DNA of 64,000 bases from Okamejei kenojei (Eukaryota). The position numbers and the translations under genes are program-made. Location: assembly GCA_035221665.1 (NCBI GenBank), contig CM069161.1, positions 3,720,001 to 3,784,000 of the forward strand, in the 5' to 3' direction. The notes under the pieces were generated by a model. The model was not told the DNA's origin and did no database searches. It worked only from the letters and a program-made list of their open reading frames with translations. Numbering within the stretch: position 1 is the stretch's first letter; every line of letters begins with the position of its first letter. Shown here one piece after another: positions 1,088 through 61,629 of this stretch.

Positions 1088-1176
1088 CAGTCTGAAGAAG
1101 GGTCTCGACCCGAAATCCCCTCTCTCCAGAGATGCTGCCTGTCCCGCCGAGTTACTCCAGCATTTTGTGTCTATCT
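1088..1176 (+). mobile_element. Solo Penelope pLTR arm
   Basis: cagtctgaagaagggtctcgacccgaaa...gagttactccagcattttgtgtctatc. Confidence 0.8.
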
Positions 1177-2355
1177 ACCCTGAACGTGAGCACGTTTTGG
1201 AAAAAGCTGATTGAATGATAATCCGGAATATTCACATCCCTTCCCTGCCTTCTCCTACACACACCTCGCACTGGGCTCTGGTTTAATTCTACGTGGCCCA
1301 ATGCGACGGGGGAGCATTTCACTGTTCACTCACCACCCAAGGCAGGTACATGCCCTCGCTGCGCGGCACCCACCGCCTACCTATTCCTGCCCAGGTGTAT
1401 TGCCGCGTACAGGCTGTGAGAGACAGAATCTAACTCAACACCACGCCTCTGTCGGCCTGGCAGTCCGCTCTCTTGGCCACGCCAAGTCATCTCCGTTATT
1501 AGTTAATGTCTACATTGTGTTTTGGATTAGGTCACTTTTATTTTACAGAAAGCAATATTCCACCCTGTTTTAACAATATCAGCGAGTTGCTGGGTGTGAC
1601 GCCATGACATCCATTCATGGATTCAACGTGACTCACCAGGAGTTACTAGTATGGGAAACCTTTATACATTTAATATTAATTCCGGCGTTGAAACAAAGAG
1701 CAAAAGCGCCACGTCCCTGCTGTTTGAGGATGTGTTCAATGCGTGCGCGCTTTGGTGAGAAACTGTGTGTATATTTTATCAATGATCGTCATATAGAAAG
1801 AGATGCGCAGACGTTTTCAATGTACTCGGCTAAAATATTACCCCGCAATCAGTGTGGACAAGGAACAGACACACGACTGCAAGTGTCAGACAAAGGGGGA
1901 GATATGAGCAAAGGACAGGGACACAAAGAGATGCGAGGGACATGTAATATGATGAAAGAGAGTTAAAATCCAATTTTTGTTCCTTTCTATTCAATGGCAG
2001 ATTGAGGGCGTGACTTTACCAAGGAAAGGCAATAGATTGAGAATGACTCCTTGCCCGCAGCAGTCCGCCCGCACCCTGAACGCAGCTCCACAGCTCCTGG
2101 CGCATCGTGAGCTTAATCACTCCCATTTATCGCTTGTCGGACGATAAATGTTTTATCTTCCTTGCCAACACCTGCCTCGCCCCTCCCTCCGACATCTTCA
2201 TCATCCCTCAGCCAAACCTGACCCTCAGTCTCCACAGACCTAACATTGGGTTAACGAGTGTTGAACCGATGGAAGGAACGGCTCCCGTTTTACTGGTGTG
2301 GGCTCCATACTATTGTATGGGTGACGGGCCCTGTTCATGGGGTCCTTAGGTGACA

Positions 2356-2574
2356 TGTGTAGGAAGGAACTGCAGATGCTGGTTTAAACTGACGATAGAC
2401 ACAACATGTTGGAATAACTCAATGAGACAGGCAGCATCTCTGGAGAGAAGGAATGGGAGACGTTTCGGGTCGAGACACTTTCTTAGACTGACCGAGGCTG
2501 CCTGTCCTGCTGGTTTACTCCAGCATTTTGTGTCTATCATCGGTGTAAACCAGCATCTGCGGTTTCTTCGTACA
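2356..2574. mobile_element. Penelope-derived fold-back element, both tails present, right arm internally deleted
   Basis: Starts tgtgtaggaaggaactgcagatgctggttta and ends taaaccagcatctgcggtttcttcgtaca. Confidence 0.8.
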
Positions 2575-3617
2575 CTATCAAATGGGAGATGAAGATACTG
2601 TACATTGTAATAGAGGTGTGGGGGGTGGGTGCGGGGAACGAACATCACAGTGGAAAATTGGAAGGGGGAAGTGTGTCAAGTGGTCCGGCGCAGGTTGGGT
2701 GGGACAACTTGTGTCTTGTGCGGTGCGATTCTGTGGTTACCAATGTTGCTTCACGTTAACAAGGGATACTAACCAGAGTCTCCAAATTCAAAGCGATTCG
2801 TGTTCAGGTTTCGTGGGTATTCAGATAAGTGCGATTTGTAATGTTTACACTGTAAGTGGCAATTTGTTCATATCTAAAATTAATTATCTTCTTTAGCTAA
2901 TGAGCTAATTTCATAAAGTGGAAGTGCACACTCCGAGGGCGCAGTTACGAGTATTTATTCGTAATGATTGCTCGCACCAGCGAGGGGTGAGATCCGGGTC
3001 TTGACCTCCCTCTCCCTCTCCCTCTCTCCCCATCGACCCGGGGCTCTACCTGCGGCATGTCAGGTCATGAACTCTCACCTGGAGATTAACCCAAGACAGT
3101 TCAAAGCTCCCAACTCGGCGCAGACTCGCCGACTCTGATATGCCTTCAGCAAACACATTTTTTAAAAAGAGGGGAACGGGCAAATTCTGCGCAAAATAAA
3201 GCGAGATGCTTTGGAAAGTATCAAAACATCCCTCCCGACACGTTCAGTTTGACAGGGTATTTGCATCCCAGTGTCGGAAATGCGATTCTGTGCGAGTCTG
3301 CACTTAAACGTTTTTAAGTTTTCAGAAACATAAACAAGTTGTTTTCACCTTCATAGGAAACCAAGGGATCAAATTTAAACAAAATTTAGATCGCACCGGT
3401 CGAACCCAGCCAGACTGCCCTGGTGTTCCGCCCATTCCACTTCAGTGACTTTCTTGGCGTTTGAATTTAAAATATTTAAAGTTTTGCGGCTTATTGTGTT
3501 TAGTCTGACATTGTTTGCGCCCCTCTTGAGTGATCCCACGCGACATCATGACACATTTCCTCAGCATCTCAATGTTGTCTGTGACATTATCAAACCGGGT
3601 GTTAGAACCAAAAAAAA

Positions 3618-3619
<2 letters not shown>

Positions 3620-3665
<46 letters not shown>
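3620..3665. repeat. Poly-C homopolymer (46 bp)
   Basis: Directly visible. Confidence 0.95.
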
Positions 3666-5556: not shown

Positions 5557-5776
5557 ACAAATCACAAAGCGCTGGTGGCACTCAGTAGGTCAGGCAGCAT
5601 CTGTGGAGGGAATGGACAGGAGACGTTTCCGGTCTGGACTCTTCACCAGGCAGAAGGCTGAATAAAGTCCCCATCCGAAACGTCGAATGTTCGTTTCCCT
5701 CCAGAGATGCTGTCAGACCCCGTTAGTTCCTCCCGCATTTTGTGTTTTTTTCCCTCAAAATTCAAGCATCTGCAGT
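5557..5776. mobile_element. Diverged Penelope-derived fold-back element
   Basis: Inverted arms (caggcagcatctgtggaggg / ccctccagagatgctgtc) around a degenerate core. Confidence 0.7.
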
Positions 5777-7518: not shown

Positions 7519-7519
7519 C

Positions 7520-8010
7520 ATAGACACAAAAAGCTGGAGTAACTCAGCGGAACAGGCAACATCTCTGGAGAGAAGGAATGGGTGACGTTTCGGGTCGAGA
7601 CCTTTCTTCAAACTGGTTAGGGATAAGGGAAGCGAGATATATAGACGGTGATGTGGAGAGATCAAGAACAACGAATGAAAGATATGCAAAAAAGTATCGA
7701 TGATAAAGGAAACAGGCCATTGTAAGCTGTTTGTTGGATGAAAATGAGAAGCTAGAGCGACTTGAATGGGGGAGGGATAGAGAGAGAGGGAATGCTGGAG
7801 CTACCTGAAGTGAGGGAAATCAATATTCATGCCACTGGGCTGTAAGCTGCCCAAGCTAAATATGCGATGCAGTTGCTCCAATTTGCGTTCAGCCTCTCTC
7901 TGACAATGGAGGAGACCTAGGACAGAAAGGTCTGTGTAGGAATGGGAAGGAGAATTAAAGTGTCCAGCAACCGTGAGATCATGTTGGTTCACGTGGGCTG
8001 AGCGAAGGTG
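7520..8010 (-). mobile_element. Penelope-like retroelement 3' fragment (GIY-YIG endonuclease C-terminus, 3'UTR and pLTR)
   Basis: ORF 7801-8028(-) HLRSAHVNQHDLTVAGHFNSPSHSYTDLSVLGLLHCQREAERKLEQLHRIFSLGSLQPSGMNIDF matches the PLE GIY-YIG C-terminal pattern (VAxHFN...HS..DL.V.GL...RKL.E...IF.LG.L.P.GMN). It is followed by the same terminal sequence as the short fold-back repeats. Confidence 0.85.
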
Positions 8011-8694
8011 TCTGCATCTGGTAGCCACATGTCAGCAAAACACGAACGGGAGACCTGTGCCTCATGAGCTGAAGGCAACATTCCTCTTATGGTTGCTGCG
8101 AAGTAGCCATTCCTATTACTTGTTAACGTTCATCATTTTGGGGGAATTTCCGATGAGTCGCCAGCCTATTACATGCTGGGAACTGTGTTAGGTGACTCAT
8201 TCGGGAAATTGGCAAATGTTAATGAAAATCTTCACCCAATGGGCATCACGATATGTCATCCGGTCAGCGATGCTGGAAGTCCCGCTGACATGTGCGTTCA
8301 TCACAATTTGATACTTGAAACAGTTCGCTTTCACTTTCTTTGCGGCGCAATAATACAAATGTTTATATTGTCATCTGTTTAAAAGAACAACCATTCTTTG
8401 TGCGATAAGCGTGCCTGCAAACACGTGTCATTGGATATGTATGTGTTTTGTCTGTGTTTACATAGATTAGGCATGCCCGCCTGCATCGCATTGCGTGTAT
8501 CGTGCACTTGTGGCGCATGTCTCCGTGTGTATGTTTACCTTTGCACATATCAATGTATATGTTCATTGGTGCCTGGTCGTGCCTGGGTATGTGTACTAAT
8601 TTAATGTTTCTCATCGAGGCGCGTGTCTATCACCAGTGTACGTATCCGCCTTATACAAGCTATGCAAAATCCCGCATAAGGCAGCATTAAATTT

Positions 8695-9250
8695 AAAACA
8701 CAGAGTCCTGGAGGAACTCATCGGGTCAATTCGTGTCTGGGCAGGGAATGGACAGGCGAAGACACTTATTCAAACTTTCCGGATGCTGCCTGACCCGCAG
8801 AGTTCCTCCAGCGCTTTCTGTTTTGCTCAGGATTCCAACATCTGCAGGTTCTCGTGTCTCGACCTGAAATGTCACCCATACATTCGATCCAGAGATGCGG
8901 CATTTTGTGTCATTCTTCGGTATAAACCAGCATCTGCGGTTTCTTTCTACACAGTTTAAGGAAATGGCTGAGTAACAGCAATGCAGAGGAATTAGCATAA
9001 TAAAGACACTGAACAAATTGATGCTTATTCCAAGCCAGACCGTTTAAGGAAATGGACCCAGAGTGCTGGAGTAACTCAGCGGGTCACGCAGCATCTCTGG
9101 AGAGAAATGATGGTTGACGTTTCGGGTCAAACGTCTGAAGAAGGGAAACGTCACCCATCCCTTTTCTCCAGAGATGCTGCGAGACCCGCTGAGTTACTCC
9201 AGCACTCTGTGTCTACCTTCGGTATAAACTAGCATCTGCGGTGTCTTTCT
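8695..9250. mobile_element. Cluster of Penelope-derived fold-back elements
   Basis: Arms at 8695-8950, and a clean fold-back at 9058-9250 whose hammerhead stem II is deleted (ctgaagaagggaaacgtcacc). Confidence 0.75.
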
Positions 9251-9440
9251 GTGCAGATTGGGAAATGGCTGAGTAACACCAATGCAGAGGAATTAGCAGA
9301 ATAAAGATATGAGCAAAGGATGCTTCGCACTGTGACATATTTAAGGGTGAGAGCGTCAGAATGTGCAGCCAATACTGAACTTGCGAACACTGAATGTGGG
9401 GTCAGGCAATGGATGCGGAGCGGTGTGGAACTTGAGGGGC

Positions 9441-10556: not shown

Positions 10557-11706
10557 TTGAATGTATTAAAAATAAATATTAAAATCCTCATCTATCTCCT
10601 ATTAGTGATCAGGGCCCTTTATTTTCTTCCATCAAGTCCTTTGCACGCTCAGTCCACTGCCTCCCCGCAGCTCCACCCTTCTCCTCGTCATTTTGCCCCG
10701 TTGGAGTTATTCTTTCAACCACCACTTCAATACTCATGGAGAACTGAGTTGTCCAAGCCATCGCCTTTCACACGAGGAGTTGAATGGAAGCTGACTCTGT
10801 CTTATCTAACAAGGCACCATTTGAAGAGGCACCGAGTTGGCTCAGCGATCCAGCAACACTAACTCCCCGACCTGCACCAGGTTAAATAAAGCGACAAATG
10901 GTTTGTGGTCTGGACTGTTCCTAGGATATGACGACGCGCGCTTTTCCTCCCTTACCTGCAGTTCTTTCCCACACATTTTGCCAGTGACCAGCAAATCACT
11001 GAAATACTAATTAAAATATTTCCAGGTTTTCAACTTTCTAACAAAAATGACAAATATAATCAGGAAATGGTGAAAGTACGCAGCGTGTAAGGCGACATCT
11101 GTGGAGAAAAAAAAAAACAGTTCCAACGGAAGGAAAGTTTCGTTGCAAGTGTTTATACCTAAAATATTAGCTTTTCTCTGTCTTTCCTCAGAGGTGCCAA
11201 TCTTGTTTTTTTTAATACATTGCTGCAAAGGTGGCATTGTGCCAGGCACCAAATATCTTTGAATTGACTGAGATTGTGCCATGGATATTTAAATCATTCG
11301 TAAGATGCTATATATTTATCCCCTTAACAAAATGTAAAAAGACCGATACTCTTCATCGATGTTGGAAGTTTCCTGTTCTGTGCAAGGACTGTGGTCATCT
11401 GGACTTGTTCCGTTTCAAAATAAAGTGTGCAAAATTCCATAGATGGCAATACTAAATTCAAGCCACATCGTGTATTCGCTGAATAAGCAAACGACTAGTA
11501 TTAGTAACGTGGAATAAACACGGTGACAACTGAGCAAAGGATGCTTTCTCTGAGAATTGGTTACGGGTTAGGGTGACAAACATTCGAATAATTCTAAATG
11601 TCTCAGATCCACCCGTCTAAAAGGTTTTCAGATAAAGAGCGCCAAGACCAAGTGGTCTGGGGCCATGGACAAACTGCGAGGAGAACAGGGACAATGTAGA
11701 CTGGGG

Positions 11707-11927
11707 GTGTAGGAAGGAACACAAGGAATCTTATAGAAAGATTCTATGTTTCTATGTTTCTGTGAACTGCAGATGCGGGTTTACACCGAAGACAAACACA
11801 AAGTGCTGGAATATTTTGGAGATGGATGCTCTCTGAAGAAGGATCTTGGCCAAAACGTTACCTATTCATTTTCTCCAGAGATGCTGCCTGACCCGCTGCG
11901 TTACTCCAGCATTTTGTGCCCATCTTC
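11707..11927. mobile_element. Penelope-derived element interrupted by a short CR1 tail
   Basis: The tail gtgtaggaaggaac is split by ...ttctatgtttctatgtttc before resuming gaactgcagatgc. Confidence 0.65.
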
Positions 11928-14900
11928 AGTATGGACTAGACTTGAGTTCCGCAAACAGAATATCAAGGCAGTGTAGACAGGTTGATGGCTATTTACCCTG
12001 TTGGTAGAGTTCCTAAAATGAGACAAACACGATTATCTGGAACCACTGGTTGGAGTAAAGCGTAGAAGATGTCTAGAGCCCTCGCCTCCCCACTAACCCC
12101 TTCCTCCACCACCACCGCCATTCCCCCCAAAATGATTAACTGCATCAAATCAAGTTGTGTTTATTGTCACACGCACAAGTACAACGAGATAGAGGAACAA
12201 TACAAATCTTACTCGCAGCGGCATCACAGGCACGTAGACGCAGATAAACACACGCACACATAATTTACACGTAAAATTATGCAAGGCAATAAAGAAGAAA
12301 GATTGCAAAAACAAGATTAACGCAAACCCAATTGTGTCTTCCTGAAACAAACAAAAACTCACTTAAATGTTTAAAGTAATTTTATGATAAAATAATTATT
12401 CAATTAATTAAAGTACTAATCTCATCGGAATGGCAATTTATGTAACAGAAACTGTATTGGTAGAGGAGATACAATGAACTGCAGATGCAGGTTTGCAAAG
12501 AAATGTCTCGGAATGGAGGACATTTGAACTGTACAAATTGTGGTAAATCATCGCTCAATAATCCCTTATTTACCCGTGTGCTGTCTACATGTTAACGTTC
12601 ACGTACACACCATAAACTCGACGAGTTTAAACAGTATGAAGATAAGATTTGTTAAATAACATTAAAGCTGCTTATTGTCATGATAAAGTGTTCTACATTA
12701 CTTAGTCAGACACTGTGGAAGTGGATATTAATAATTAAAACATGTGCGAATATGGAACCCAAATGGCGATTTAATGGATTCCTATTATGAAATCCTTTTG
12801 GTACTATTAGCTAATACTAAAGTGCTATTACCATGGCAGATGCGATCGCCTGATGATACATTCCGCCCAATGCGCATAAGAAAGCGGATTGTAAACAATT
12901 CGTTATTAACTATTTGTTATACCAAACAGATAACGGAGGGGATCAAACTAATTTAACTCTGTGTCCTTGCAGTCCTGATGGTCTTTGCAACCCGGTGCCA
13001 GCTCACCAAATTCCAGAGGCATCCTTGCAGACATGTTTTGCAGTAGAGCAATTACCCGCAAGTCACGCACTTCCTCTACTCCGCCACCAACCTTCATGAA
13101 CTTGCTTGTCCTGTGTGAACTTACAACTATTAAAATAGTAAGTGTTAGTCGTAAAATCTAAAACAGGCAACATTGGGAAAGATAGAGTAACGATCGCTGT
13201 GAGACTGGGTTATCAGAACAAGACTTCCGGAGCAGCACTAGGAATTCAAGTTAGGACGGAAAATTAGTTAATTTTATTGTAAATCGTTTCTAGCCTCCGT
13301 AAATCTCATTCTAGCGGTAAATAAACTTCGTTTCAACATAGCAACACAAGGAACTGCACATGTTGGAACTTTGAATAAAACACAAAGTGCTGGAGGAACT
13401 CAGCGGGTTAGCCAACATCTGCACAGGGAATGGATAGGCGAGGTTTAAGAAAGGGACCCGTATTCGGACCACTATGCCGCTGTTTCGATCTTACTACAAA
13501 ATCCTTTCACTTTGTGATGTATTTATGATCTTAACAGTGACCTTTTTTTAAAAATAATACTAACGATCGATTCTCGGGGTTACGAAGATTCCCTCTAAGG
13601 TGTCTTTAGAAAAGAACAATGACATAAGATATTCTATCTGCACCAGATAGTTGTGTTGAGAGGCAAGATTTAGTTCATGCACATAAAAGGCATTTTTGTG
13701 TGCCAGCATTGCCTTTGAAATGTAAAGCATTTTATTGCATTTTGGTAATCAGTACAAATGTGGATGGCTGCGAGTCAAAATGAATTGGATAAAAGAAAGT
13801 GTTTGTAACACTTGAAGGGTCCTGACCCGAATCGTTATCCGTCCATTCCCTCCGCAGTTCCGCCTGACCGCTGAGTTCCTCCGGCATTCTGTGACTTGCC
13901 CCGTTTCAATCTCTATCTTAACGTAGAAACAGTGAGTAATTTCTGCAAGTTCAATGTGATCCAAGATCAGTGCAATATTATTAGGGAGTGGAAGGAGAGA
14001 AACGGTGGGGATAATCGCCAGATATCCCTGGTTAGTTATTGGGATATAACACCCAAGGGGCCCCTATTGAGGTAACATATATCACTGCCCAGCGGACCGT
14101 GACACAATCGCCCTGGGTGAGAAACAATACTAGTTGGTTAATTAATCCTCCAAAGGAGTGGCGCAGTCCCATCCTATCCCACCCTTTCCCCATTCTCCGT
14201 GCCGCTGCTAATTCAACTTGCACACATGTATAAGCACTTGTGCACGCCTTCGCAACGTCGCGAGGGTGAATCATTAACTCGAGTCAGAGGGCAATTAAAC
14301 CGAATAGAGATCGATAGCAATTGTAGTGATATGCTTTAACATAACAAATAACATATCATAAATACGAAGGAACAAGAAACTGCAGATGCTGGTTTACAAA
14401 GAAAGACACCTATTCTGGACTAACTGATATCCACGTTCTCCGGAGATGCTGCCTGGCCCGGTGTGTCACTCCAGCACTTCCTATCTGTTTTTTACTGCAA
14501 CTATAGACGGACCCATCAATGACAATTTAGCAGGAAACAACATATTTAGATTAAACTAATAACGACATTGTTGTAATATAGGGTTATCTGTCCCTTCTTC
14601 TGCAAGATATCCCTGGTAAAGAGACTTTTGCAGATGTTTTTCAGGAAATGTGAAAAATGCCAACATGTTCTCGATGGAATGGAAATGGAATGGAATTCGA
14701 CTTTACTGAGTGTCCAAAACATGTCTGACTGCGGGGCACAGAACTCCCGGGGAGGAGTAGTAACGCTCGTTACTAATTGATATTGGGACAGAGAGCCGAG
14801 CTTCGGTTGAAAACGAACTCACTTGTAGGAATAGAGGGGAGAAAGGGGGAGTAAGGAAATACAGTAAATAAAGAGAGAAAAGACCAGAAGCGACAGCGCT

Positions 14901-15269: not shown

Positions 15270-15318
<49 letters not shown>

Positions 15319-16152: not shown

Positions 16153-18013
16153 CGTATATAATTGTTAAAAGAGAATTGCTTCTTGCTGATATATTGAAAG
16201 AAGCAATTCTGTAGTTACAATTTTACACGTGCATGCAAGAAACTATATTTGAGTGCGTGGTTGTAACACACTCTATACTCTCAGACATGTCCCAAAGAAT
16301 CTATTCAGTAGCAACGACAGACTGTGAAGCTCAGCAATGTTGTATCAAGCAAAGACTTGAAACATGTTGTCATATTACAAGGGAGAGAATGAGAAAAGTG
16401 AACCAGAGCCTGATATAGAGCCGGAGGGAGAGCAACGTGATTTATGTTTGGCTGTTAATAGCTTCAGAGAGTGTGCCCAAAGGAGTCGAGACTAACCTCA
16501 CAGAACATGTAGGACGTCTGAACGGATTCCTAGACGGATTAGAAAAGAAATCATGATCAAATAGCCTCGATTAATGAGAATTATCCGTCCCTCATTGAAA
16601 CACCTTGTCATGTGTAACATTGTAGCCAAATATAATCCAAGGCCAACAAATTGAAATCGAAACGTAAATAATAATGTTTAAACATCCTGGTAAAGGTTAT
16701 TCAAGCGCGACCCTGCCTCTTGCCACGTGGGCTCGCTCAGAGTATAATCCGAGTCTCACCTGTTAAAGGCGGCTCGGGTTACCCGGTGGGTCTGAACATT
16801 CATGAAGTCTGAATTTGGTCGGTTTATCTGTAACTTCGCAACTAGTGCTCGCTCTCACTCCACTTCATCAGTTGACTTTTGGACGGCGGGTCGTAGCGGC
16901 ACACAAATGCTAATTATATCGGTGTGTACATAATTACCAGCTGTTTCAGCCTTAATAGAAAATGCAAAATCACTTTCAGCTTTGACTCCAAGGAGGAGAT
17001 CTGCCATCTATCCGTCCCACTCGGATTATACGAGGTCCTGGGAAATTTAGCCGTGGCTCTCCCGGTCCTCGCGTTACTTAGCATCGAGGAGTTATCACGG
17101 GAGTGTGTAGGAAGGAACTGCAGATGCTGGTTTACACCGAAGATAGATACAAAATGCTGGAGTAACTCAGCGGGTCAGGGAACATCTTTGGAAAATAGGA
17201 ATAGGCGACGTTTGGCGTCATGGGTAAGGTAGCGGCGGGAGGAAAGATCAGGGGTTCTCGTTGAGTATTAGGATCAATCCCAGTTGCAGCGCAGTGGCCC
17301 ACAACGGTGCCCATTTCTGTCCAAAACTAAAATGTACGGTCTGCCAGGTATCGCCCTAAACACCAACCAAACCACCAGCCACTTCGTTCAAATCCCTGCG
17401 TTAGAGTCATTGAGCCATGCGGCATAGAAACACGCCCTTCAACCCATGGCGTTGCCTGCATTTGGCCACATCACTGTGAACCTTTATATGTTTCAAAGAT
17501 ATATAGGCGCGGAAAGCTGGAGTAACTCAGCAGGTCAGACAGCACCTCTGGAGAAATGAGTAGGAGATTTTTTCCACATCGCTCTAAACCTTTCCTATCC
17601 ATGACCCTGTTTTTTTTTTTTTTTTTTATGTTGTTATTGTACCTGTCTCAGTTATTAGTTTAATACCTAGGCCCCTCGCAGCATTTTGCATCCGTATAAA
17701 AACGAAAACAATTGACCTGATTTTTTTTTTTAATTGCTTTAAATGTCAAAATCAAAAGATTTATATCCGAGCGCCATGGCCGAGAGCGAAAGCCGTTGGA
17801 ACAGTGAATGTTGAGTGAGAGGGGAAGTCTTGACAGCGAGGTGAAGACGACAGGCAGCCTGTGGTCTGCTTAACCTGCATAGAAACTGAATAATCCATGG
17901 GAATATATTGTTTACTTTAATTCCCCAAACTATTTTTAAATAACAATGGTTGCAAAATTATGCTGTTATCAATTTAGACAATTTTCTTTTAACAATCTGT
18001 CAGTCTAACAGAT

Positions 18014-26250: not shown

Positions 26251-27217
26251 AACAGTTTGTTTTCATGCGTAGTTGCATTGAAATGGAGAATTGGAATTTG
26301 TTAGTCAGCGTCAACTTCGTTTAGTGCAAAACTCCGTGCACCGTTTTCCTCATTACCAAATTTAATGCCTCCATCGGCCTCTTGCTGCTGCATCAACAGC
26401 CCCGAATTTACCAGGCAAATACAAGTTTAAGAATCTTTTCTGTCTGGGATGGGGATGAGGAAGGGGTCCCTGATGAGTCGTGAATGCCCACAAAATGTTG
26501 GAGGATTTGTGCTCTTCAAATCCAGGGTCAGCTTCACTGTATGTGTAAAAAACATAGTGTGTGATGGGGGGAGGGGTGGGGTTGTTGCTGTGTTCGTGAA
26601 GCATATAGCTAAATCTTCAGAAAGTTGGGACGATGTTTCTAACCACGTTGTGATGACACTATTGAGATTGTGCTGTGGCTGCGTGTCCACTTACCTTCAG
26701 AGACCCATAAAGTGAACAAGTAAAACGACCGAGTTCTTCTGCAAGTAATGGTATTGACTTATCATTGTCATGTGTACTCGGATAAAGTAAGAAGCTTTAT
26801 CTAGTTACACTTCATACCATGCATGAGTGCAACCCCACTATTCCTCCAACTGGAAGTGCAGAATATAGTTTTACACCTACTGAGAACCCCAAAACAGGTG
26901 TTCTTGTCTGTTTCTATAAATATCCTAAACATCCTAATTTCCTTAGTTCTCTTTTAATTTAACCTTCCCCTCTCTTTACATCTATTTGGCCAATTGTACT
27001 CTTAATATACCGTGTTTCCTTCTTGATCATTTGTCTCCCTCTCCCTCCTTCATTCTAAGAAGCTCACTGGTTAACTGGTGGCAGACTGTAGTTTGCCAAA
27101 TTCATTAAGTTCCCCGTTATTTTGTTCTCTCCAGTGTGCCTTTGTTAGCTCAAATGTGACCATCTTGCAGTTCAATATCAATTAACCTAACGGTGAGGGG
27201 AAACTCCTTCCAGCAAT

Positions 27218-27572
27218 CGACACAAAATGCTGGTGTAACTCAGCAGGACAGGCAGCATCTCTGGAGAGAGGACATGGGCGTCATGTTGAGTCGAGTCGAG
27301 ACCCTTCTTCAGACTGAGAGTCAGGGGAAAAGGAAACAAGATATAGATGAAGTAGAGAGATATATAACAAATGAATGAACCATATGCAAAAAACAACAGT
27401 GATTTAGGGAACAGAGCATTTTTAGCTGTTTTCTATGTGAGAATGAGAAGCTGGTGAGACTTGCGTGGGGGAGGGGTGGAGAGAGAGGGAATGCAGGGGT
27501 TACTTGAAGTTAGGGAAATCAATATTTGTACCACTGGGTTGTAAGCTTCCCAAGCAAAATATGAGATGCAGC
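27218..27572 (-). mobile_element. Second Penelope-like 3' fragment
   Basis: Colinear with 7520-7875, including the end of the GIY-YIG ORF (gggaaatcaatat...ccactggg.tgtaagct.cccaagc) and the terminal pLTR sequence. Confidence 0.8.
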
Positions 27573-28112
27573 AACCTCATTCCAGCAACCTCTGGCATAG
27601 TATTTTTGTGATTGTACGGTAATGAAATAAAATCAAAACTGGCATCAGAATCTACACAATCATGACAGATTTACTGTGTGTCTGTTACCAAACACACCAC
27701 AATGAAATCTTCAAATGGACAAGTACCAAATTCCTCGAATCGTTTTATTTTCCATTGAATCTGTGTGACAGTAGCTAAATTCATTGGAGGGTGGTGCTAA
27801 TTTCGTTTCACTGACTTGTTTAATGCTACAATGGTAAAAAATTTCATTTTGGGAGGTCAACAAAAAATATCACCATATATACTTGGGTACTAGCAGTGGA
27901 ATCGGTGATAAGCAAGTCAACTGTGTATCTAGTTGACCATCTGCCACCCTGCATTGCACAAATCCACAATAAAGGGCACTGTTGACTAATCTTGCCAATT
28001 AATCTCTAACTACTAGTTTACAATAGGCCCGGCCTTGAGGTGAGGGAAAATTTTTTGGAAGTTATATGTCAATAGTCACCTGCTCCTCACAACCAAGTTG
28101 CATTTACCATAT

Positions 28113-40758: not shown

Positions 40759-41997
40759 AATCCATTATATCCATTCTCTTATGTATTTAGTTCATGAACT
40801 AAATTACATGACACTTCTATTCTTAATGAGATCTCTAATTTTCTGAATTCTATTCATCCTTGAAGTGTAGAATCAGGCAGCAAGCAGGAATGTTTATCTG
40901 TGTAATCAACAAAATGGAAAACTATGCTGCTAACTAAAGATGGACAAATCGAATCTGGCCAAATGCTGTTATATTTGTCCACTCTAAATCATCAGCAGAT
41001 CATGGGTGGTGTCATCACTTCTTAATCTATCAACATTTCTTGGTTTGTGTTCCTCCAGAATCATAGTTTCAGACCTCTTTACCAGTCTTAATCCACATGG
41101 GGGCAAAGTCTCTGAGTTTCATATGTAAGGTGAAGACAATGGCACTTGATATGAAGGTGATATTTGACCAGAAGTTACATCAAATAGATCCACAAAAGAT
41201 TGGTCAATAGGAATCAGAGGAAAACTCTCATCTAACTTTAGCTCATACACATGATTAGAGGATGATTATAAGATTGGAAGTCAATTATCCTCGGGCAGTG
41301 TGAACAACCAAATGTAGCTGCTCCTCCTTCCAACAGGTCAGAAGTGGGTAAAATCACTGACAATTCTGCAATCTGGGTCCATTCCCAATTTCTCGGATTT
41401 GTACAAGCCTGGACCAATATTCAGCCTTGAGCTGATACACAACAAGTAACTTTCATACAATGCAAGTAACAGGCGTGAACCACTTCCAGCGCAAGAAAGT
41501 CCAATAACCTTCCAAAGACATTCAATGACGTAAACATCATCAAAACCACTAGGACAACATCGATGCGACACCGTTGATCAGCAGCTTGACTGAACACATA
41601 TTTTGATGTAGGTTTTCCACAGTGAGTAGATGACATCCCAACTATCCATCCTTCTGGATCAGTGCTGCTCCGTCAAAACTCATAAAAGTTCACACCATGG
41701 CAAAGCAGGGTGTTTGACACTCTTCTCGGCATCAACAAGATGTACTCCAAGCACATACCCGCGCACACCTGTGGCCCCACACCCCCACCATCCCCAATCA
41801 GCTGCCGGTAACAGGGTAACAGTTACATGTGCTGTACCTTCATCTTTTCTCCCCTTCAAAAGAGATGACCACTCTGCCTTGATCACCAGTCTGTGGTCTA
41901 CATTCAAACAGCTGAAGCTCCCTGCTACTGTGGGAGTACACTCAGTGCACATGTAAGGAGCCTATTATCTAGCTGTTCTCAGGGATGACAATAAATC

Positions 41998-42146
41998 CTG
42001 AAGAAGGGACTCCACCCGAAACATCACCGATTCCTTTTCTCGAGAGATGTTGCCTGGCCCTCTGAGTTACTCTAGCATTTTGTGTCTGTCTTCAGTGGAA
42101 ACCAACATCTGCAGCCCCGAACCATAACCCTAACCTTTCCTAAACA
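41998..42146 (+). mobile_element. Solo Penelope pLTR arm with TSD
   Basis: Flanked by acaataaatcct (41988-41999 and 42144-42155). Confidence 0.78.
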
Positions 42147-43544
42147 ATAAATCCTAACCTGGTCACCAACTCCCACGTTCCCTGAATGAATTTCAAATAT
42201 ATATATATATTTTAGATTCCATAAAAATCTTGCCAGAAGTGTTTAATGTAGGTTATGGTGGATATTTAGAGAGGTTTCTGAATTTGCGTTTCACATGATT
42301 CTGCACAATATTGTATTGACGGTGACTAATCGACAGCAACTTTCTACCTAAAGTGTTGAGACTTGCATGACGCCTCCAGACTGAAATTCCCTGGCACTCA
42401 GCCCATTCGCAAAGGTGGAATGCCACTTCGTAAACCAGCTACGAACTCGTGTGCACGTTCTGTACCCCACCTCCTTGAGTCAAAGTTAAAGTCAATTTTA
42501 TTCGTCACATACACCCGAAGGTGCAGTGAAATGAATAGAGTGCACGGCCCATTAGGTCATTTCGAAACGACGTGTCTGATTTCGCTTGGAAGGAGTTCTG
42601 GAGCACAACATATAGCCATCTCCGGCACTTTTCACAGCAGAGCAAGGGGGGTAAAAAACGAATCACCTCTGGCTTTCGTATATTTTAATCTGGAGAAATT
42701 GTTATGATATTGCACGACTCATTATTAAGAATATTTCATATCTAGGAAGAACTGCAGATGCTGGTTTACACCGAAGATAGACACTTCTTACACTTTATTT
42801 TAACCACTGCTCAGAAACCACAGCCCCGTTTCTGTTCCACCGTCTCCAGAAGAGAAAAAAGCAGTGTAGTTTTCTGCCCTCAGCAACCTTTAATGCTGAA
42901 CGGTACACAGAAACCACGGCGCTCTGTAACTCCCTGCGCCTCCCCGTTGCTCCTGACCAAATCCTCTCCCTGCCTCGGTTCCCGCTGTCCACAACCAATT
43001 CGCACCAAGTCCCGGAGGAGATGAGTTTTTTGAGAACAAAATCTCAAAATAGATTCTTATTTCTCCAAAATCACTGAATTCAGCTGGTAGTATTAGATTT
43101 CCGCGAAATGTAATTTGGCGAGAATGCCAGAGAGGAGAAAATACCGGGTTAATTCTTAATCAGATTTTTATTAGAACGAAAACATCTTCCATTCAGGGCG
43201 GTTTACAGTGCACGGGGCCGCTGATTTGGGGGCTTGGTATTACTGTTATATTGGCCAGCTCTTTCTGTTGCAACAATGGGAGCGTTTTACAAGTAATGCG
43301 TGGTATTCTGTCATTGTTACCCGACCACTAAAATGCCCTCACATTCAATGTGATGTTGGCTTTCATACTTTGGGTCTTATATCCTCAACCGGGTCAACTT
43401 CATGATCGGTTTATGATGACCGATCGCACTTGGTACACAATGCTTTTACGGGTTTTTGTTTAAATTGAGATTTGGCCGACTTCAGCTCTCTACAGCCCAC
43501 AATGTGTGAATGTTTCAATCAATGAAGCAAGCAATCAATTTAAA

Positions 43545-43656
43545 TCAGTCTGAAGAAGGGTCTCGATCCGAAACGTCGCCTATTCCTTTTCTCCAGAGAT
43601 GCTGCCTGACCCGCTGAGTTACTTCAGCTTTTTGTGCCATCTTCAATATAAACCAA
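43545..43656 (+). mobile_element. Solo Penelope pLTR arm with intact minimal hammerhead core
   Basis: CTGAAGA-A-GGGT(CTCG)ATCC-GAAAC-GTC at 43550-43577. Confidence 0.8.
43546..43581 (+). ncRNA. Predicted minimal (PLE-type) hammerhead ribozyme motif
   Basis: All core nucleotides are present (CUGANGA, GAAA, GUC), with an extra A after A9, a 4-bp stem II and a palindromic ACGU in place of helix III. Stem I is very weak; activity is untested. Confidence 0.55.
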
Positions 43657-45489
43657 CGAATGAATTAAATAACTATTCGTTGCTAAGAATTGAATGAACA
43701 AATTAATGAATCATAAAATTAACCGAGAATTCCGTGTAAGGAATTTTAACCGGCACTGTATTCGAAGTCCCACTTTTAAATGTTTATTCATTTTTAACTT
43801 TAGCTGCTCTCTTTTTGTTTATTTGTGCCCCTGTGGTTCTACCCCCTCTACCCTTTCTCTTCAGAGATTCAGTAGGTTTCGAAATTTCTCGCTATTCAAT
43901 CAAGTCGGGGAGGTGGGGAGGGGGGTTGGTGGTGGGTGAGTTGGGAGCATTGAGGTTAGAGTGGAGTGTGTGCTTGTCGCGCTCGCTGACACCTTTACCC
44001 TGATCCGCGACGCCCCCTCCACTCACCCCCCTCTTAGCACCAGGTCAGCAGACCCGACAAGATGTTACGACCTGCTTCTTCCATTACTGCCAATTAAATT
44101 AAATTTTTAAACCATATCTTCTTTAAAAAAAAAACATTATTTGCTTCTGAGTTGAAATGCTCAGGATCAGTTTTGATGCTTCATGAGCTAAAGGGATTAA
44201 AAAGAGCAAAATAAGCTTATACTGAGAAAAAGAGTTAAGCTTCTACCCCACTGCGAGAGAGGGCAAACTATATCAGCGCGAACTAGTGATTAGGGCCATA
44301 GCTGCGCCATTCACACGCCCTTTAGTCATTTTGATGAAAATGTTTCAATAGGGATTTCCTAGTCCACCCCACCCGATTGGGGACACACTAGAATTAAGAA
44401 TAGTTGGCTGTTGCTACGATTTGTCAGGGAATGCCAGAACTCTGCAGTGGGTAACGTTGCCTGAAGTAACTCTCTCTATTGTGTTAATAATACAGTGTGA
44501 CACCGAGCTAACAAAGGCAGATTCAGACACTCAGCAGGTAATGCAACTCATTTTCCAGGCAAGAGAGTCGGCCTCTGTCCTGAGCTGTCACAGGGCATTC
44601 CCACACCTCCGACATTACACTCTCACACTTACTCTCTCATACTTAATCCCAGGACCATCCCACACCTTTAAACTGTCCCAGGACACACTGATTGTGTCTC
44701 CTACATCACTGTCCATTGGCCTTGCTCTTTTGGTGAGTTCCTCATTCACAATTACTTTAACACCATGCTCCTTGTTCTGCTCCTGGCGTCTGCACTTCGC
44801 TAAGTATTCAGCATTGACCTTTCATTGCAACCCTCTTATCTTTCACCCATCGTGGGTTTTTTTTTACATTTAGAGGACCAGGGTTAAGCAGAAATATATC
44901 ATTGTTTGTTTGTTTTCAGGGTATCGGTAAGTATCATGCACATCCAGTTTTCCCATGGACATTAAAAGCCAACAACACCATCACGTTTCTTTAGGTTAGA
45001 TGGAGGTGGCAAGTTTCTTTCTATGAGGGACACCCATGACCCAATTGAGTATTTATGACATGCATTGTTTTTTTTTAAATCATTGTTAGATTCAGGGAAA
45101 ATAATGCTTGATTTGCTTCTTTATGCTAAAGATTCAGGAGATGACTGTTAAATCAATTTCAACGTGATTACCCCAAGTAAAAATTCTATTATGTTTCATG
45201 AAGTACATGTAATGAACTTTCCAGCGAACGGCACCAGGGGATTCACAACTTAAATGTACAATAATATGTCAGCTTATATCTCTCACAACTCTGCAGCAGA
45301 TTAATGAAAATATATCACTTTTGTTCACAATGTTAAACTGTCTATACCCTCAGGTGGTTAAAACGATGAAGACCAGGGTAGTCATCCTTGTTTTCTCGCC
45401 AACATTTATCCTTTGAGAAACATACATTCTGTAAACCAGGGTGAAGGTGGCTGCAGCCGCAATCTACACCCACTCCTTTCTACATCTAC

Positions 45490-48193: not shown

Positions 48194-50023
48194 GTAAGGA
48201 ACAAAACTGATCTGGTCTTGAAGCAATGCATTCTTCTCATATCACATCGAATGGGATGTGAGATTTGCTTGAAACACCATTTCATCTTATTCATTACTTT
48301 AGATTGTAGTCTAGGATTCTAATGGAGAATTATTATTTTTTGCTCAGAAGATGGTTAATATTCGCTATGTTATTTAAATTACATCAGGCCAGTCATTTGA
48401 GGCTCCAGTATAGCCTCAGGAGAGCATATCTGACAATACAGCATTTCCTTTGTACTCCACACAGGGAATAAGGCACATCAGGCATACACGTGCTGGCAAG
48501 GGGACTGAATTCACTGCCTTCTGATACAGACGCAACAATTCAACAAGTCCTGTCAAGCTCTGAGTGCAATGGGATTGTGTGGGGAGAGGATGTTATCCTG
48601 CAGCCATTGCAGTCATCTCAGCAACTCACTACCCAACAGTGCTGTCATATTTAGAATTATATTGGAGTTTGATTCTCGTCAATGGAAAGTGAGAGACAGG
48701 AACTCAAAGTGTCCAAAGAGTTGGCAATCCATGGTTTCCGATGCAGACTGAATATTGACAAGAAGGAGAATGGATATTCGAAGGTTCTAGAGTATACTAG
48801 TACACCACTCTTCAACATGCATCTTTCCTACATTGATTATGATAGGCAGCTTCCGTGGCTATCAAGATATGTCTGAAGAAGGGTCTTGACCCAAAACATT
48901 ACCCATTCCTTTTCTCCAGAGATGCTGCCTCTCCAATTTACTGCCTGCTTGAGTTACTGCTGCCAGAGTTACTCCAGCATGTTGTATCTATCATCAATGT
49001 AAGACAGTACTCAATGGCACCAGATATATGCCCATTTCCAAAAAGTTGCATCAACCATGGATGCAACCATCTCTGATGGGAGTTGATTGTCATTATGACA
49101 TTCCTTTGCTGAATTGTCTGAATCATTTGTGCCCCAATGTCCAAGAAAGAGTGTGACATGACTGAAGTAGTCATAAACCCCAGCCAACAAGTGATGAGAT
49201 AGACATGGGTGTCATCAGTGACAAATAGAGGTTCATCCCATTCCTGTGGCTGATGTCACCAAGTGGGAGCAAGGATGAAAAGAGCAAGGATTTCATTAAT
49301 GATGAGTGAACAGAAAAGCAAGTCTTCAAACAGGAGTTGAGCATGCTCAGACAAATACTGGTATGAACCAAGGTAGATAGTTTATTTAACTCTGAAAGTA
49401 TGTGGCATTCAGGGAACTTATAATGAGTAATTAATGTTAGTTGCTTTCCCGAAGTAGGACTGTGAAAGGAAATTGTGTGCTTCAGCTGATGTGAACTCAG
49501 GGCTGCATTTGCTTTCTGCCAGTCTCCAGCGGGACAGAGGAGGTGATGTAGCTGAGGAGAATAAAATGAGTGAGTACCTTGCTAACAGTCATAGTTCACT
49601 CTGAGCAGTCATACAAACCTGGAGCTTGAATAGGGGGTGAGAATGACTCTGAGGTAAGGACACAATGGAGAGAAAGGATGTTGAAGATGGGGCAGTCGTG
49701 GGAATGGATGAGTTGAGTATATTCATAAGGGAGGGGTAACCACAGTTTACCGGTAGTTTATGTGTCTGTAAATTACACCCTGAAACAAGCCTGCCACTGG
49801 AAATAATACACGGGGCAGTTTGACATGAAGACCGCCCCATCCAGGTGTTTGTTGTGTGTAACAGGTAGGTGGCATAAAGCCAGTGCATCTTCCTGGCATG
49901 CACTGATAGCTTGACACCATTAAGGTATGTGCCATTTATTCTCAAACAGGACTCTTTTAAAGAGTACTGCAAATTAGTCACTTTCCAGAAGGTGACTGTG
50001 AGAAGAAGCATCAACTGATCTAA

Positions 50024-50171
50024 TCCCCCCACCCTCACATCAGTATGAAGAAGGGTCTCGACCCGAAACGTTGTCTATTTCCTTCGCTCCATAGAAGCTG
50101 CCTCACCCGCTGAGTTTCTCCAGCATTTTTGTCTACCTTCGATTTTCCACCATCTGCAGTTCCTTCTTAAA
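50024..50171 (+). mobile_element. Penelope 3' end with TSD
   Basis: Flanked by caactgatctaa (50012-50023 and 50172-50183). The hammerhead C3 is mutated (atgaaga). Confidence 0.82.
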
Positions 50172-50429
50172 CAACTGATCTAAATTTGCACCCAGGCCTG
50201 ATTGGTCTCTGGCAATTGCAGTCTATTGCCCTCAGCTGACGTGTGAACCCTTCACACTGAAATAATGTGAACTGACATACATTGTACCCAGCCCATGGAG
50301 AAAACTACAGTCCATCAATTCTGACCTGTAATGTTTCCTGGATTTCTATCAGCCCTCCATTGGTATTTGTGCTTCCAGTTGTATGGGCTCCAAGCTGTTC
50401 ACAACTCCCTTTCCTTCCTCATTTCAGAA

Positions 50430-54300: not shown

Positions 54301-54761
54301 TACATTTTCAGATTACATTTTGTCATCATGTTCAAAGACTTGGCCTACATCCAATTTGTACCCCTCAGTTCCCTCCTGACTCAAACCTCAGGAACAATGT
54401 TCACAACACATCCACTAAACAGATCAGGCAACTCCATCAGCAACTTTGTCAATGTTTGTGTGCTGGAACTAGTATTATGTCAAATAAAAGCCTCAATTAT
54501 TGTAAATATAACACTGTAATTCACTTCACACTTTCACATTCCAGCAGATTATCGAGCTCCTTGGTTCATCATCAACAAAGAATCCAATTTCAAATACTGA
54601 AGCCATAAATCTATCCCTAATTTCCAAAAGAGAATTGCAAATATACCTCAGAGATTCAGGAGACTGCAGATGCTGGAATCCTGAGAATAATATTTGCTGG
54701 AGGAAGTCAGATCAGGCAGCATCTGTGGAGGGAAATGGACAGCCAACTTTTTGGGTCAGGA

Positions 54762-54988
54762 GGTAGACACAAAATGCTGGAGTAACTCAATGGGACAGGC
54801 AGCATCTCTGGAGAGAAGGAATGGGTGACGTTTTGGGTCGAGACCCCCCCCTTCAGACTGAAGAAGGGTCTCAACCCAAAATGTCACCCATTCCTTCCCT
54901 CCAGAGATGCTGCCTGTCCCGCTGGGTTACTCCAGCATTTTGTGTCTACCTTTGATTTAAACCAGCATCTGCAGTTCTTTTCTGCACA
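54762..54988 (+). mobile_element. Penelope-derived fold-back element nested in an older copy
   Basis: Inverted arms around cttcagactgaag. Perfect 13-bp TSD ttttgggtcagga at 54749-54761 and 54989-55001. The older host copy spans ~54660-55115. Confidence 0.88.
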
Positions 54989-55854
54989 TTTTGGGTCAGG
55001 ACATGTTTCAGACCTTCTGAAGGTTTTCTAAAGTAAGGTCCCAAACCGATACGCCATCTGTCCATTTCCCTCCATAGATGCTGCCTGATCTGCTCAGTTC
55101 CTCTGCACTTTGTTTTTTTTCTGTAAATGTATCTCAACTATTAATGTTTACTGATTTCTAACTAACTTGTCACTGGAGGGGATGAGGCAGTAACTTCCAT
55201 CCTCAACAACCTCCAGTCCTACGTTCAAAGCAGCCCCAAGGAAAGATGTGGGTGTATGACCAGCGATTCTACTTGATGTAATGTCTTTCCCGCTTTTTCT
55301 ATGTGTGAAACATCAATGCAAAGAAATTCCTAGCAAGGACTTGACATTTGTATTATGCTTTTGGGTCCATTTCATAAAGAAGAAAGAATGATAATGTATT
55401 TTGTAATATCAAGACATCCCAAAACACAATCAATGGGGGATTTCTTTTTGGAGCATTTGAGGCAATAATGGTGTTGAAATGCATGAAACACAGCAACCAA
55501 ATTTGCACAAAGCAAGGGCTCTTGAGCAATAATTTGGTATCCTCAGATAATCTGCTCTTTAGTAATGTTGGTTGAGCCTTTAGTTTTAGTTAGGTCTGAT
55601 AAGATTTTGAGAGGCATGCAGAGCCTCAGTATAACATTTCATCCATCCAAACCACTGTCCTGGTGTCACTGTGGAACTCACCATAGAATGCACTACAGTG
55701 GCACTTGAACCCATGAGTCACTGAGTTGGGGGGAAACCGGAGAACATCACCACTGCGGCTTACATTAAACCCTCAGGCCAAAACAATGCTAACAATTACC
55801 TTTCATGGTACTCCTTGTTTGAATTTCCCAAAGCACAACGCCTTTCTTCCTGCT

Positions 55855-59461: not shown

Positions 59462-60504
59462 GCTCCCCAGAAAGGAAAGCGGGTGCCACCGAGGGCGTCT
59501 TTAAATCAGTTTCATTCTAGTTTTGTTCAAGGCCCAATTTTTATGTTTCTGAATTTAAATACTGTCACCTTGACAGGAATGACTACAACCTCCAGAATGC
59601 ATTGCACAATGCAAAATCCCACAGGGCTCAAGATACAAGCTGTGGTATTAGTATCGTAACAACAGCTTAATATTTCAGCCGTACATTTATTATATCCCCA
59701 AGTCAAAGGATATCAGACAAGATCCTGGTTACAACAACTCCTAGTTCTTTAGGATGGTGACTATATCACATTCTACACATCGACTTAAGTATTAATACTG
59801 CCTGTATTTCTCACCTATCAGTTGCACCTTTATCATATGATTGAAAGTTGAGATTTGAGTGGATTTATGGTTCGGCTGATGCAGACATGCCTTCCCCTTA
59901 CAGGGACCTTGCATCCACCACCCACTGAAGAGCAATTCTACTGACTTCTTTCTGTGAAAGAAACAAACAATGTTGGATAAGATAAAGAAGCAAGGTGGGA
60001 ATTCATTGTTGAGCCCCATGGATAGCTTTCCTGAATGAGCGAGTAGTTACTTCAAGCAAATGGGCATTGACATCCTATGCTCTAAAAATAACCAACAGTC
60101 TGCAGCATTTATCGTAGCATTTTTCTACCTTGTAGCCTGGAATTACTAGCTCCAAGTTGAACCTGTATTGCAAGTTGCTATATCCAAAGTTTTGTACAAA
60201 TTAGATGTTTGACCCTTTGATTTTATATTCTTAAAGCCTATGTTTTTATAATTATTTATTGCACAATGTGTATATATATGACTCAACTGAGATTATATAT
60301 TTGCAGAAAGTGTCTTATCTGCTGTTTCTAGTTTATAAACTTGCCATGGTGGCTTGAAGGCAGCGTGAGTTACATTTACTATCATGCTTCACAGCGGAGG
60401 ATCCAGAGTGAGTTCTATGGAAGCGGATGTTAAATGTATAATCTCTCCTGTCACTCAGTGTACATATTCTTCTTTTAGTATTTAGAAATAGCAACAAACA
60501 AAGA

Positions 60505-60510
60505 AATAAA
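60505..60510 (+). terminator. Distal polyadenylation signal AATAAA
   Basis: AATAAA with upstream TGTA elements (60436, 60459) and a downstream GT/T-rich tract (gtagtgtattctggtgtgctgctctttctt). Confidence 0.6.
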
Positions 60511-60863
60511 ATTTATTCATGTAGTGTATTCTGGTGTGCTGCTCTTTCTTACCTGGACACCCAAACTCATTGATTGTGATTTAACATCATGTTACTGCAC
60601 TTGTCAGTCCCATTCAACTGGTAGACTTTTAACTCCCAACTCCTCTACAGGTCTTTGCAACTGGTTGCCCTTGTTTGAAGTTGCTGTTCTTCACATGTAG
60701 GAGAGGCAGTGAATGTCAGCTGGCCGGTTAACTGATGAGCCGGGTCTTGTTCTTATCGGCTGTCTTTGCACTAATGTCAATGGGGTACTAATCTGGAGTA
60801 TCAACTCTGGCTGGGGAATCTCAAATGCTCTGTCAGGTTCAACCTAGGCACTTGATGACATTG

Positions 60864-60972
60864 TGTGTAGGAAGCCTGAAGAAGGGTCTCGACCCAAAAC
60901 GTCACCCATTCCTTTTCTCCAGAGATGCTGACTGGCGCTGCTGAGTTATTCCAGCTTTTTGTGTCCTCTTTG
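60864..60972. mobile_element. Collapsed Penelope fold-back element with TSD
   Basis: Perfect 14-bp TSD acttgatgacattg (60850-60863 and 60973-60986). Only 11 bp of the left-arm tail (tgtgtaggaag) remain. Confidence 0.82.
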
Positions 60973-61354
60973 ACTTGATGACATTGCGAGGTAGGCCCAG
61001 CTCGCTCTCAAATGTTAGCATAAACTGGGGCTTTAAAACGCAACTGGTATTCAGCAGCCATTGTATTTTCAGCATTTACTGTACATCTCCTAACATTGAG
61101 TCACTTGACAGGACTGTTTTAAACCCGACTGCAGGCCGCTGAAACACCTTCCAAAGTTCACAGAGTTTTGTCAGATGAATGGGGAACAGGTTTTGCAGCA
61201 TTCAGCAGCAGATACACTAATTCAATGGGTGAGTATTGATACTCACTCAGAGGTGACCCCACTGGCAATTCTGGTCGCATCAGCATGGCAATGACTCGGG
61301 ACAGTTAGAGGACTTTGGAGAAGGAGGCAGAGATGTAGTGCAGGCCTCTCGCAA

Positions 61355-61629
61355 AAAAACAAACTGCTGGATGAACTCAGCAGGTCAGGCAGCATCTGTG
61401 GAGGGAAATGGACAGATGGGGTTTCGACGAGGAACCCTTCTTCAGACAGTATCTGTAAGGGCTGTCCTTAAAAAAAAAGGCCCTTTCCTCAACAGAAAAG
61501 GTTTCTGCTCCCACAGGAGTACGCAAGAAGAGGAGATAGGCACAAAAAGCTGGAGTAACTCGGTGGGTCAGGCAGCATCTCTGGAGAAAAGGAATAGGTG
61601 ACGTTTTGGGTCGAGGCCCTTCTTCAGAT
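61355..61629 (-). mobile_element. Two Penelope pLTR arms
   Basis: Arms at ~61355-61448 and ~61533-61629, each ending ...cccttcttcaga. Further partial copies lie at ~13345, 13815, 14370, 17103, 28832, 29040, 31925, 38895, 42743 and 48870. Confidence 0.75.

Follow-up and report, generated by a model that had tools for sequence, protein, structure and literature searches.

Short hammerhead-bearing repeats at the Wnt3 locus of a skate as end-pieces of a probable Neptune-type Penelope-like element

A 64,000-nt stretch of the genome of the skate Okamejei kenojei (assembly GCA_035221665.1, contig CM069161.1, positions 3,720,001–3,784,000, forward strand; hereafter the window, on which all positions are based) contains a Wnt gene set among a dense population of short repeats. 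These repeats are mostly decayed, short end-pieces of a Penelope-like element (PLE) with a small self-cutting RNA motif, the hammerhead. The gene is Wnt3, as a first-pass annotation had proposed, its last exon scoring 374.7 bits to Wnt-3 and 347.3 to Wnt-3a. Coding exons lie on the plus strand at ~25002–25243, 47928–48193, and 57641–58120; the first exon was not located in the window, and none of the located exons is overlapped by a repeat. With a profile built from eight window copies of the repeat unit, here called the arm, 39 arms are detected at E<1e-3; the reversed window, which served as control, yields no match. They are held by ~30 loci between 1088 and 61628 that cover 4420 of the 64,000 bases (6.9%), a density in this window of about one locus per 2 kb. 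The annotation's count of more than 20 copies is thereby confirmed, but the 28-mer core quoted as common to them is only a consensus, approached within five mismatches by 15 arms and matched exactly by none. The exact hammerhead-core pattern occurs at four sites in the window. Eight of the 10 solo arms in Wnt3 introns are in the sense orientation, a bias that is not significant (P 0.11). A tree of the arms includes 34 of the 39, five having been left out as too short, and 3 of its 31 inner branches are well supported.

The parentage of the arm is read from two minus-strand copies, at 7520 and 27217, which run 5′ through ~190 pyrimidine-rich bases into endonuclease coding sequence. The arm is thus the 3′ end of an element, behind its endonuclease. 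The coding fragments (7801–8010 and ~27498–27572, minus strand) represent the C-terminal half only. A HMMER search with the 69-residue piece from 7801–8010 yields 205 relatives at E≤0.001; the same fragment returns nothing relevant from Pfam and PDB, and none of 22 candidates in a word-indexed protein search. The C-terminal half aligns at 38–64% to six relatives, in which Pfam detects GIY-YIG at E≤0.0021 (five) or 0.008 (one). The longest relatives carry reverse transcriptase (RT), an extra Cys cluster, and GIY-YIG, with RT in the same open reading frame (ORF) in P0027, P0106, and P0114, and a CX2-5CxxC cluster between RT and endonuclease in P0006, P0015, P0027, P0106, and P0114. As described in PMC8557442, this layout is that of Neptune and Nematis, and the extra CX2-5CxxC cluster is common to both rather than exclusive to Neptune. 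A further search, started from one of the top hits, gives skates and sharks as the sources of its closest named relatives. By sequence, the arm is the terminal repeat (pLTR) end of a PLE, probably of Neptune type. The Penelope origin claimed by the annotation is upheld by these relatives, and its assignment of a GIY-YIG endonuclease end to the two fragments holds for the C-terminal half, the GIY-YIG motif itself being present in relatives only, outside the window fragments. A coding role for the arm itself was considered and rejected: most arms carry a stop in one frame, and in young arms the frame that opens with ATG is only 17 codons long. Translated arms gave no match among 197 fetched proteins.

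In every core column, the majority base of the arms fits the published minimal PLE hammerhead (CUGANGA, an extra base, G10.1–C11.1, GAAA, a palindromic 15.2–16.2, and NUH, here GUC; PMC4209133), with a helix II of 4 bp and a helix I of 2 bp. The annotation's hammerhead consensus is therefore borne out column by column. The extra base after A9 and the palindrome are both PLE hallmarks in that paper, so the viroid (CChMVd) analogy once invoked for them is not needed. Pairing in helices I and II is kept in 80% of cells versus 7–47% in slid controls. Covariation in the helices is no higher than in shuffles (390 of 500 reach it), and RNAalifold, run on 16 arms, recovers a single five-pair helix with no compensatory change. 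Between old and young arms, differences fall in 1 of the 28 hammerhead columns, within loop II, and in 11 of the 63 columns downstream of it (P 0.096). When 21 arms were used to build a covariance model for the hammerhead region, it returned 24 matches, 21 of them by construction. The scan with hammerhead models that the annotation had named as a check, run with Rfam, placed no hammerhead family among the matches in the window or at 43500–43680; a match to mir-641 was discarded as a hairpin only, under its cut-off. Indirect evidence comes from the read-through tails of endonuclease relatives: one of 18, from a distant relative with 40% identity, could accommodate the hammerhead motif, versus none of 540 shuffles.

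Individual copies depart widely from this consensus. A descriptor for the minimal hammerhead is passed by one of 39 arms (43550, plus strand), against a mean of 0.125 in 40 shuffles, and G12 is lost, at a CpG, in 9 of the 21 core-spanning arms. The genomic copies are probably mostly dead. In monomer folding without tertiary terms, the ribozyme fold is predicted at −1.6 kcal/mol versus a minimum of −10.3 kcal/mol, and a competing helix is predicted to hide the core; that helix is partly broken in old arms and is therefore not claimed as conserved. For copies in which two arms face each other (fold-backs, below), the modelled RNA is a 92-pair hairpin with a minimum free energy of −173.9 kcal/mol (z −22), in which the core is hidden by the opposite arm, in agreement with the sequestration that the annotation had foreseen. 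Its statement that either strand of a fold-back yields one hammerhead holds for the consensus only: among the arms at the 10 fold-back loci, none satisfies the descriptor. The only intact hammerhead, at 43550, lies in a Wnt3 intron in the sense of the pre-mRNA, which suggests that the monomer is harmless or inactive. Published PLE minimal hammerheads show no monomer activity and weak dimer activity (PMC4209133). The skate ribozyme is probably active only within the source RNA, either dimerized or assisted by protein.

The ends of the copies are sharp. The 3′ ends fall at two points ~35 nt apart, at columns 90–103 in 13 of 39 arms and columns 134–137 in 11, giving untailed copies of ~100 nt and tailed copies of ~135 nt as measured from the 5′ boundary; the tail ends 123 nt from the start of stem II. 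At the other side, 24 of 39 arms begin at columns 2–6, a few bases 5′ of the hammerhead core, and one near the cleavage site (34/35). Downstream flanks diverge directly after the AC-rich tail end in the 18 arms compared, except for one duplicated pair. Among 19 arms checked upstream, long common sequence is confined to the two endonuclease-linked ones. Target duplications of 12–20 bp (score at least 10) accompany 7 of 31 intervals versus 2.8% of random intervals, and are carried by solos, fold-backs, and one endonuclease-bearing copy; at 27217, 28112, and 54761, they abut both ends within three bases. The duplications indicate that solos, fold-backs, and the 355-bp ORF-bearing copy were each inserted as one event. 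The family thus exhibits the insertion signature of endonuclease-bearing (EN+) PLEs: 5′ truncation, an inverted copy, a one-sided tail of 30–40 bp, and a target duplication. A short box is repeated before each 3′ end (arm columns 82–87 and 112–117, 30 nt apart), and a single upstream segment is predicted to be able to pair with either box, which might account for the existence of two priming sites. At 42119–42143, ~25 bases separate an arm tail from the second copy of a 12-bp direct repeat; this insert loosely resembles telomere repeats.

The 5′ boundary resembles both a splice acceptor and, by comparison with the initiator consensus, an initiator, and remains a lead. No other AG occurs in the last 40 nt of either pLTR before the boundary, in a region that is pyrimidine-rich throughout. 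Across the 190-nt stretch, the endonuclease stop (~7797–7805 and 27494–27502, minus strand) overlaps a splice-donor-like site, and it is at this point that protein P0090 passes, in frame, from the end of the endonuclease into host-like sequence unrelated to it. The donor-like site and the acceptor-like boundary could make this part of the pLTR an intron; the Drosophila intron described in PMC4209133 ends at helix I.

Fold-backs form a minority, ~10 of the 30 loci (eight adjacent head-to-head pairs, a split pair, and a vestigial one). Most often one of their sides bears a 35-nt tail, and they recur in old and young subfamilies. All eight close opposite-strand pairs (gap ≤10 nt) are head-to-head, so that a fold-back is bounded on each side by a 3′ end of the element; the joint is a CAG-N-CTG palindrome. 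The two arms at 9050 are sisters sharing private variants, which means that fold-backs also form anew. Within each fold-back, both arms have the same state at column 98, which does not follow the lineage marked by ATT. This ATT, found in 4 of 36 site-spanning arms, is a haplotype, since the C>T change alone occurs in none of the 32 others. A database peptide covers the centre of a further fold-back, and the polarity read from it for the tailed arm is the same; this could reflect a mechanistic rule or, equally, descent from an old master copy. Younger copies lie inside or directly beside older copies of the family (54660–55113 and 8762–8953), as expected if PLEs target their own repeat. The tailed arms of 8854–9045 and 9132–9325 have in common ~67 bp of 3′ flank at 90% identity, found nowhere else in the window, through either local duplication or 3′ transduction.

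The account favored here, and held to be the likelier one with room for doubt, is that an autonomous Neptune-type PLE of a cartilaginous fish produces the short copies directly by insertion. The PLE protein would nick both target strands, and RT would start inside uncleaved RNA at either of two sites, as in the anole Poseidon element. The cDNA made from the 5′ pLTR would halt at a fixed point just 5′ of the ribozyme, probably the 5′ end of the RNA or a splice acceptor, to leave a solo copy of ~100 or 135 nt, and two cDNAs primed from the two target strands would anneal at the CAG-N-CTG palindrome to give a fold-back. The resulting genomic copies lack downstream RNA that, by analogy, the protein may need. 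The non-autonomous, ORF-less family proposed by the annotation is a possible reading of the short copies but not the favored one, an inverted, 5′-truncated copy with a one-sided tail being a standard PLE product as described in PMC8557442 and PMC3846280. Several observations weigh against direct insertion. The mechanism is transferred from a Poseidon element to a Neptune one. The pile-ups at columns 2–6 and 137 coincide with the ends of the profile and so rest on the flank checks. No RT-coding sequence, RT remnant, or full-length element is present in the window, and only 2 of 30 loci reach the ORF. Most directly, all three fold-backs of the youngest subfamily (2356, 28112, and 54761) pair an ATT arm with a GCT arm, the ATT arm always being the one that reads CAG-T-CTG, and neither endonuclease-linked copy has ATT. 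In permutations among 11 arms including 48867, three mixed pairs have P 0.12, or 0.016 with polarity; without 48867, the values are 0.067 and 0.009, all post hoc with n = 3. The shared asymmetry would need either a fixed pairing of two pLTR alleles, as from a source array in which both are used jointly, or a fold-back that was itself propagated.

The latter is the core of a rival account, in which a non-autonomous fold-back master of ~225 bp (an untailed ATT arm and a tailed GCT arm), derived from the PLE, would itself be transcribed and move in one piece by retrotransposition in trans, with some of the solos left by deletions within it. This testable form of the annotation's view is a tentative alternative, clearly less probable than direct insertion. 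Besides the recurrent arm asymmetry and the peptide with its matching polarity, it draws on the haplotype nature of ATT, on a weak clustering of ATT arms in the tree (83/89), and on the two untailed arms that stop at the same base with the target duplication abutting. Mobilization in trans has precedent, in that rotifer pLTRs suffice for it (PMC3846280) and non-autonomous PLEs exist (PMC8557442). Yet ATT is also carried by one solo arm (48867) and by a tailed one (2356), the state at column 98 goes with the locus instead of the ATT lineage, the sister arms at 9050 point to fold-backs formed anew, and the RNA of such a master would be a 92-pair hairpin. The anole template, by analogy, needs ~55 nt past the RT start (PMC11167929), and these would be absent from such copies. 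In its boldest form, which is doubtful but worth stating, a ~225-bp hairpin of two different pLTR ends would be a self-propagating non-autonomous skate retroelement that the Neptune protein copies in full; each hammerhead would be kept silent by the arm facing it, and the fixed joint would mark where two cDNAs from a dimeric PLE protein annealed. A joint of that origin, if real, would explain the long-known inverted pLTR and the one-sided tail.

Formation of fold-backs from a single cDNA that primes itself at the palindrome, with solos as leftovers after arm deletion, is improbable. Loss of an arm or centre at 11764, 14373, and 60864, a short inverted remnant at 31925, and the private variants common to both 9050 arms would suit it. 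It predicts identical arms, with CAG-A-CTG on the arm made second, whereas 28112 and 54761 show the opposite polarity; the one-sided tail, the differing arms, and this centre polarity together exclude self-priming of one cDNA at those two loci. In a DNA folding model, a cDNA that stops at the palindrome yields no hairpin unless it extends further, and the solos at 50040, 17492, and 27217 have target duplications of their own. Least credible of all is a DNA transposon resembling a miniature inverted-repeat transposable element, to which the hammerhead match would be incidental. The near-perfect inverted repeat of ~220 bp has that appearance, and the missing Rfam hammerhead match and the lack of covariation would suit it, but the arms are continuous with a PLE endonuclease, the duplications are long and variable (12–20 bp), the ends are asymmetric, the core fits the PLE consensus position for position, and the read-through tail of the distant endonuclease relative is compatible with that motif too.

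Table 1. Copies of the arm family in the window, with strand (a point marks fold-backs) and distinguishing features
Feature	Position	Strand	Details
5′-truncated PLE	7520..8010	-	endonuclease C-terminus 8010-7801, ~190-nt pyrimidine-rich pLTR, hammerhead 7611-7584 with C3->U, untailed 3′ end
5′-truncated PLE	27217..27572	-	last endonuclease codons, pLTR, damaged hammerhead, untailed; 16-bp target duplication at both ends
Solo arm	43545..43665	+	sole intact minimal hammerhead 43550-43577; partial tail; Wnt3 intron, sense
Young fold-back	28112..28328	.	tailed GCT arm (-) and untailed ATT arm (+), head-to-head; 14-bp target duplication
Young fold-back	54761..54988	.	untailed arm (-, ATT), tailed arm (+, GCT); 16-bp target duplication; within older copy
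Fold-back	2356..2575	.	tails at both ends; ATT arm (-) complete, GCT arm (+) without hammerhead
Fold-back, sister arms	9050..9254	.	private variants in both arms (support 96/90)
Vestigial fold-back	60864..60972	.	~11 nt inverted tail plus untailed + arm; exact 14-bp target duplication
Old-subfamily fold-back	5562..5776	.	
Old-subfamily fold-back, centre deleted	8687..8851	.	
Fold-back, left arm mostly lost	11764..11939	.	
Fold-back, centre deleted	14373..14496	.	
Old-subfamily fold-back split by young one	54660..55113	.	arms 54660-54757 (-), 55027-55113 (+)
Solo untailed arm	1088..1178	+	deletion spans cleavage site
Tailed arm	8854..8953	+	~67 bp 3′ flank in common with 9132-9254 arm
Decayed remnant	11064..11110	-	
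Old-subfamily tailed arm	13348..13469	-	
Old-subfamily arm	13814..13910	+	head-to-head with 13348 arm, 345 bp apart
Tailed arm, truncated within stem II	17104..17219	-	
Arm, truncated within hammerhead	17492..17572	-	20-bp imperfect target duplication
Tailed arm, truncated within stem II	28830..28944	+	
Tailed arm without hammerhead	29042..29129	+	
Untailed arm, G12 lost	31925..32026	+	short inverted remnant on 5′ side
Full-length tailed solo arm	33163..33298	+	G12 and U16.1 lost
Tailed arm	41996..42118	+	core kept, stem II and helix III disrupted; 12-bp direct repeat enclosing 25 additional bases
Tail only	42742..42784	-	
ATT-type solo arm (also 48867)	48870..49007	+	internal duplication, partial tail
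Tailed arm, divergent type	50024..50173	+	16 extra 5′ bases (arm from 50040) inside exact 12-bp target duplication
Old-subfamily arm	61359..61448	-	
Untailed arm, G12 lost	61534..61628	-	

The window also contains fragments of a second repeat (7251–7500, 20201–20566, 25657–26181, 29690–29986, and 50402–51564), whose translations resemble what we take to be the end of a CR1-type long interspersed nuclear element (LINE) ORF; Pfam gave no match for 25657–26181. A 48-bp minisatellite at 50568–51406 (~4 + 13 copies, 95–99% matches) lies inside one LINE-like fragment. A 46-base C run (3620–3665), a 79-base G-rich run (15262–15340), and a 228-base N gap (15675–15902) beside an AC-rich stretch are possible assembly artefacts.

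PLE hammerheads, solo copies, and inverted ends are already in print, and the kind of element is known. No description of the arm family in skate was found in the literature; Dfam and Repbase lay outside that search, so it may be catalogued there. Its value is as a test bed, offering sharp ends on both sides that may record how PLEs copy themselves, two 3′ ends in agreement with the two priming sites demonstrated in vitro for another clade, and one 5′ joint. From a skate genome, enough copies might be gathered to settle how inverted pLTRs arise and whether the short ones are able to transpose again. The intronic hairpins likely give double-stranded RNA in the pre-mRNA; in Drosophila, transcription begins within the pLTR and inverted copies yield small interfering RNA (PMC2377424, PMC3681739).

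Retrozymes, to which the annotation had likened the family, consist of two or more units arranged head-to-tail, every one of them with a complete hammerhead, and are expressed as circular RNA (PMC7229834, bioRxiv 10.64898/2026.07.22.740005); one of nine frog dimers cleaved (bioRxiv 10.64898/2026.07.22.740005). The arms resemble non-LTR retrozymes in being short, ORF-less, and pLTR-related with a type I hammerhead (PMC7229834), but they are solo or head-to-head and nearly all broken. The arm is the repeating unit in none of the 21 tandem-repeat rows of the window, and the window has one intact motif, so the family falls outside the definition of a retrozyme. Closer parallels are found among metazoan PLE pLTR hammerheads, including those of fish Xena, Poseidon, and Neptune, which have the same core and are mostly dispersed singles from truncated PLEs. 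Coelacanth and frog have thousands of dispersed single minimal hammerheads, with opposite-strand pairs 100–700 bp apart (PMC4209133). Relative to that set, the 2-bp helix I lies at the low end of the published alignment, the part of which considered here contains no cartilaginous fish, and the opposite-strand arms of the skate overlap at one palindrome.

As insertions, the skate copies share with PLEs that have inverted pLTRs the truncation, the inverted copy at the 5′ side, the 30–40 bp tail on one end, and the target duplications described in PMC8557442, PMC3846280, and PMC8969392. They differ in often consisting of two pLTR ends only, in their fixed joint, and in duplications of 12–20 rather than the 8–10 bp of rotifer. 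The most detailed counterpart is the Anolis Poseidon element PAc, whose protein extends both target strands and whose two internal starts bound the tail. In PAc, RT starts 111–118 nt from the start of stem II, in an AC-rich loop, with RNA to +172 needed; cleavage is not needed for RT, and the hammerhead cleaves only with protein (PMC11167929). PAc belongs to a different clade, and the skate arm, known from sequence alone, keeps no ORF frame across subfamilies. Both systems nevertheless have two 3′ ends that bound a tail, an AC-rich end ~120 nt from stem II (+123 in the skate), and no pile-up of copy ends at the cleavage site.

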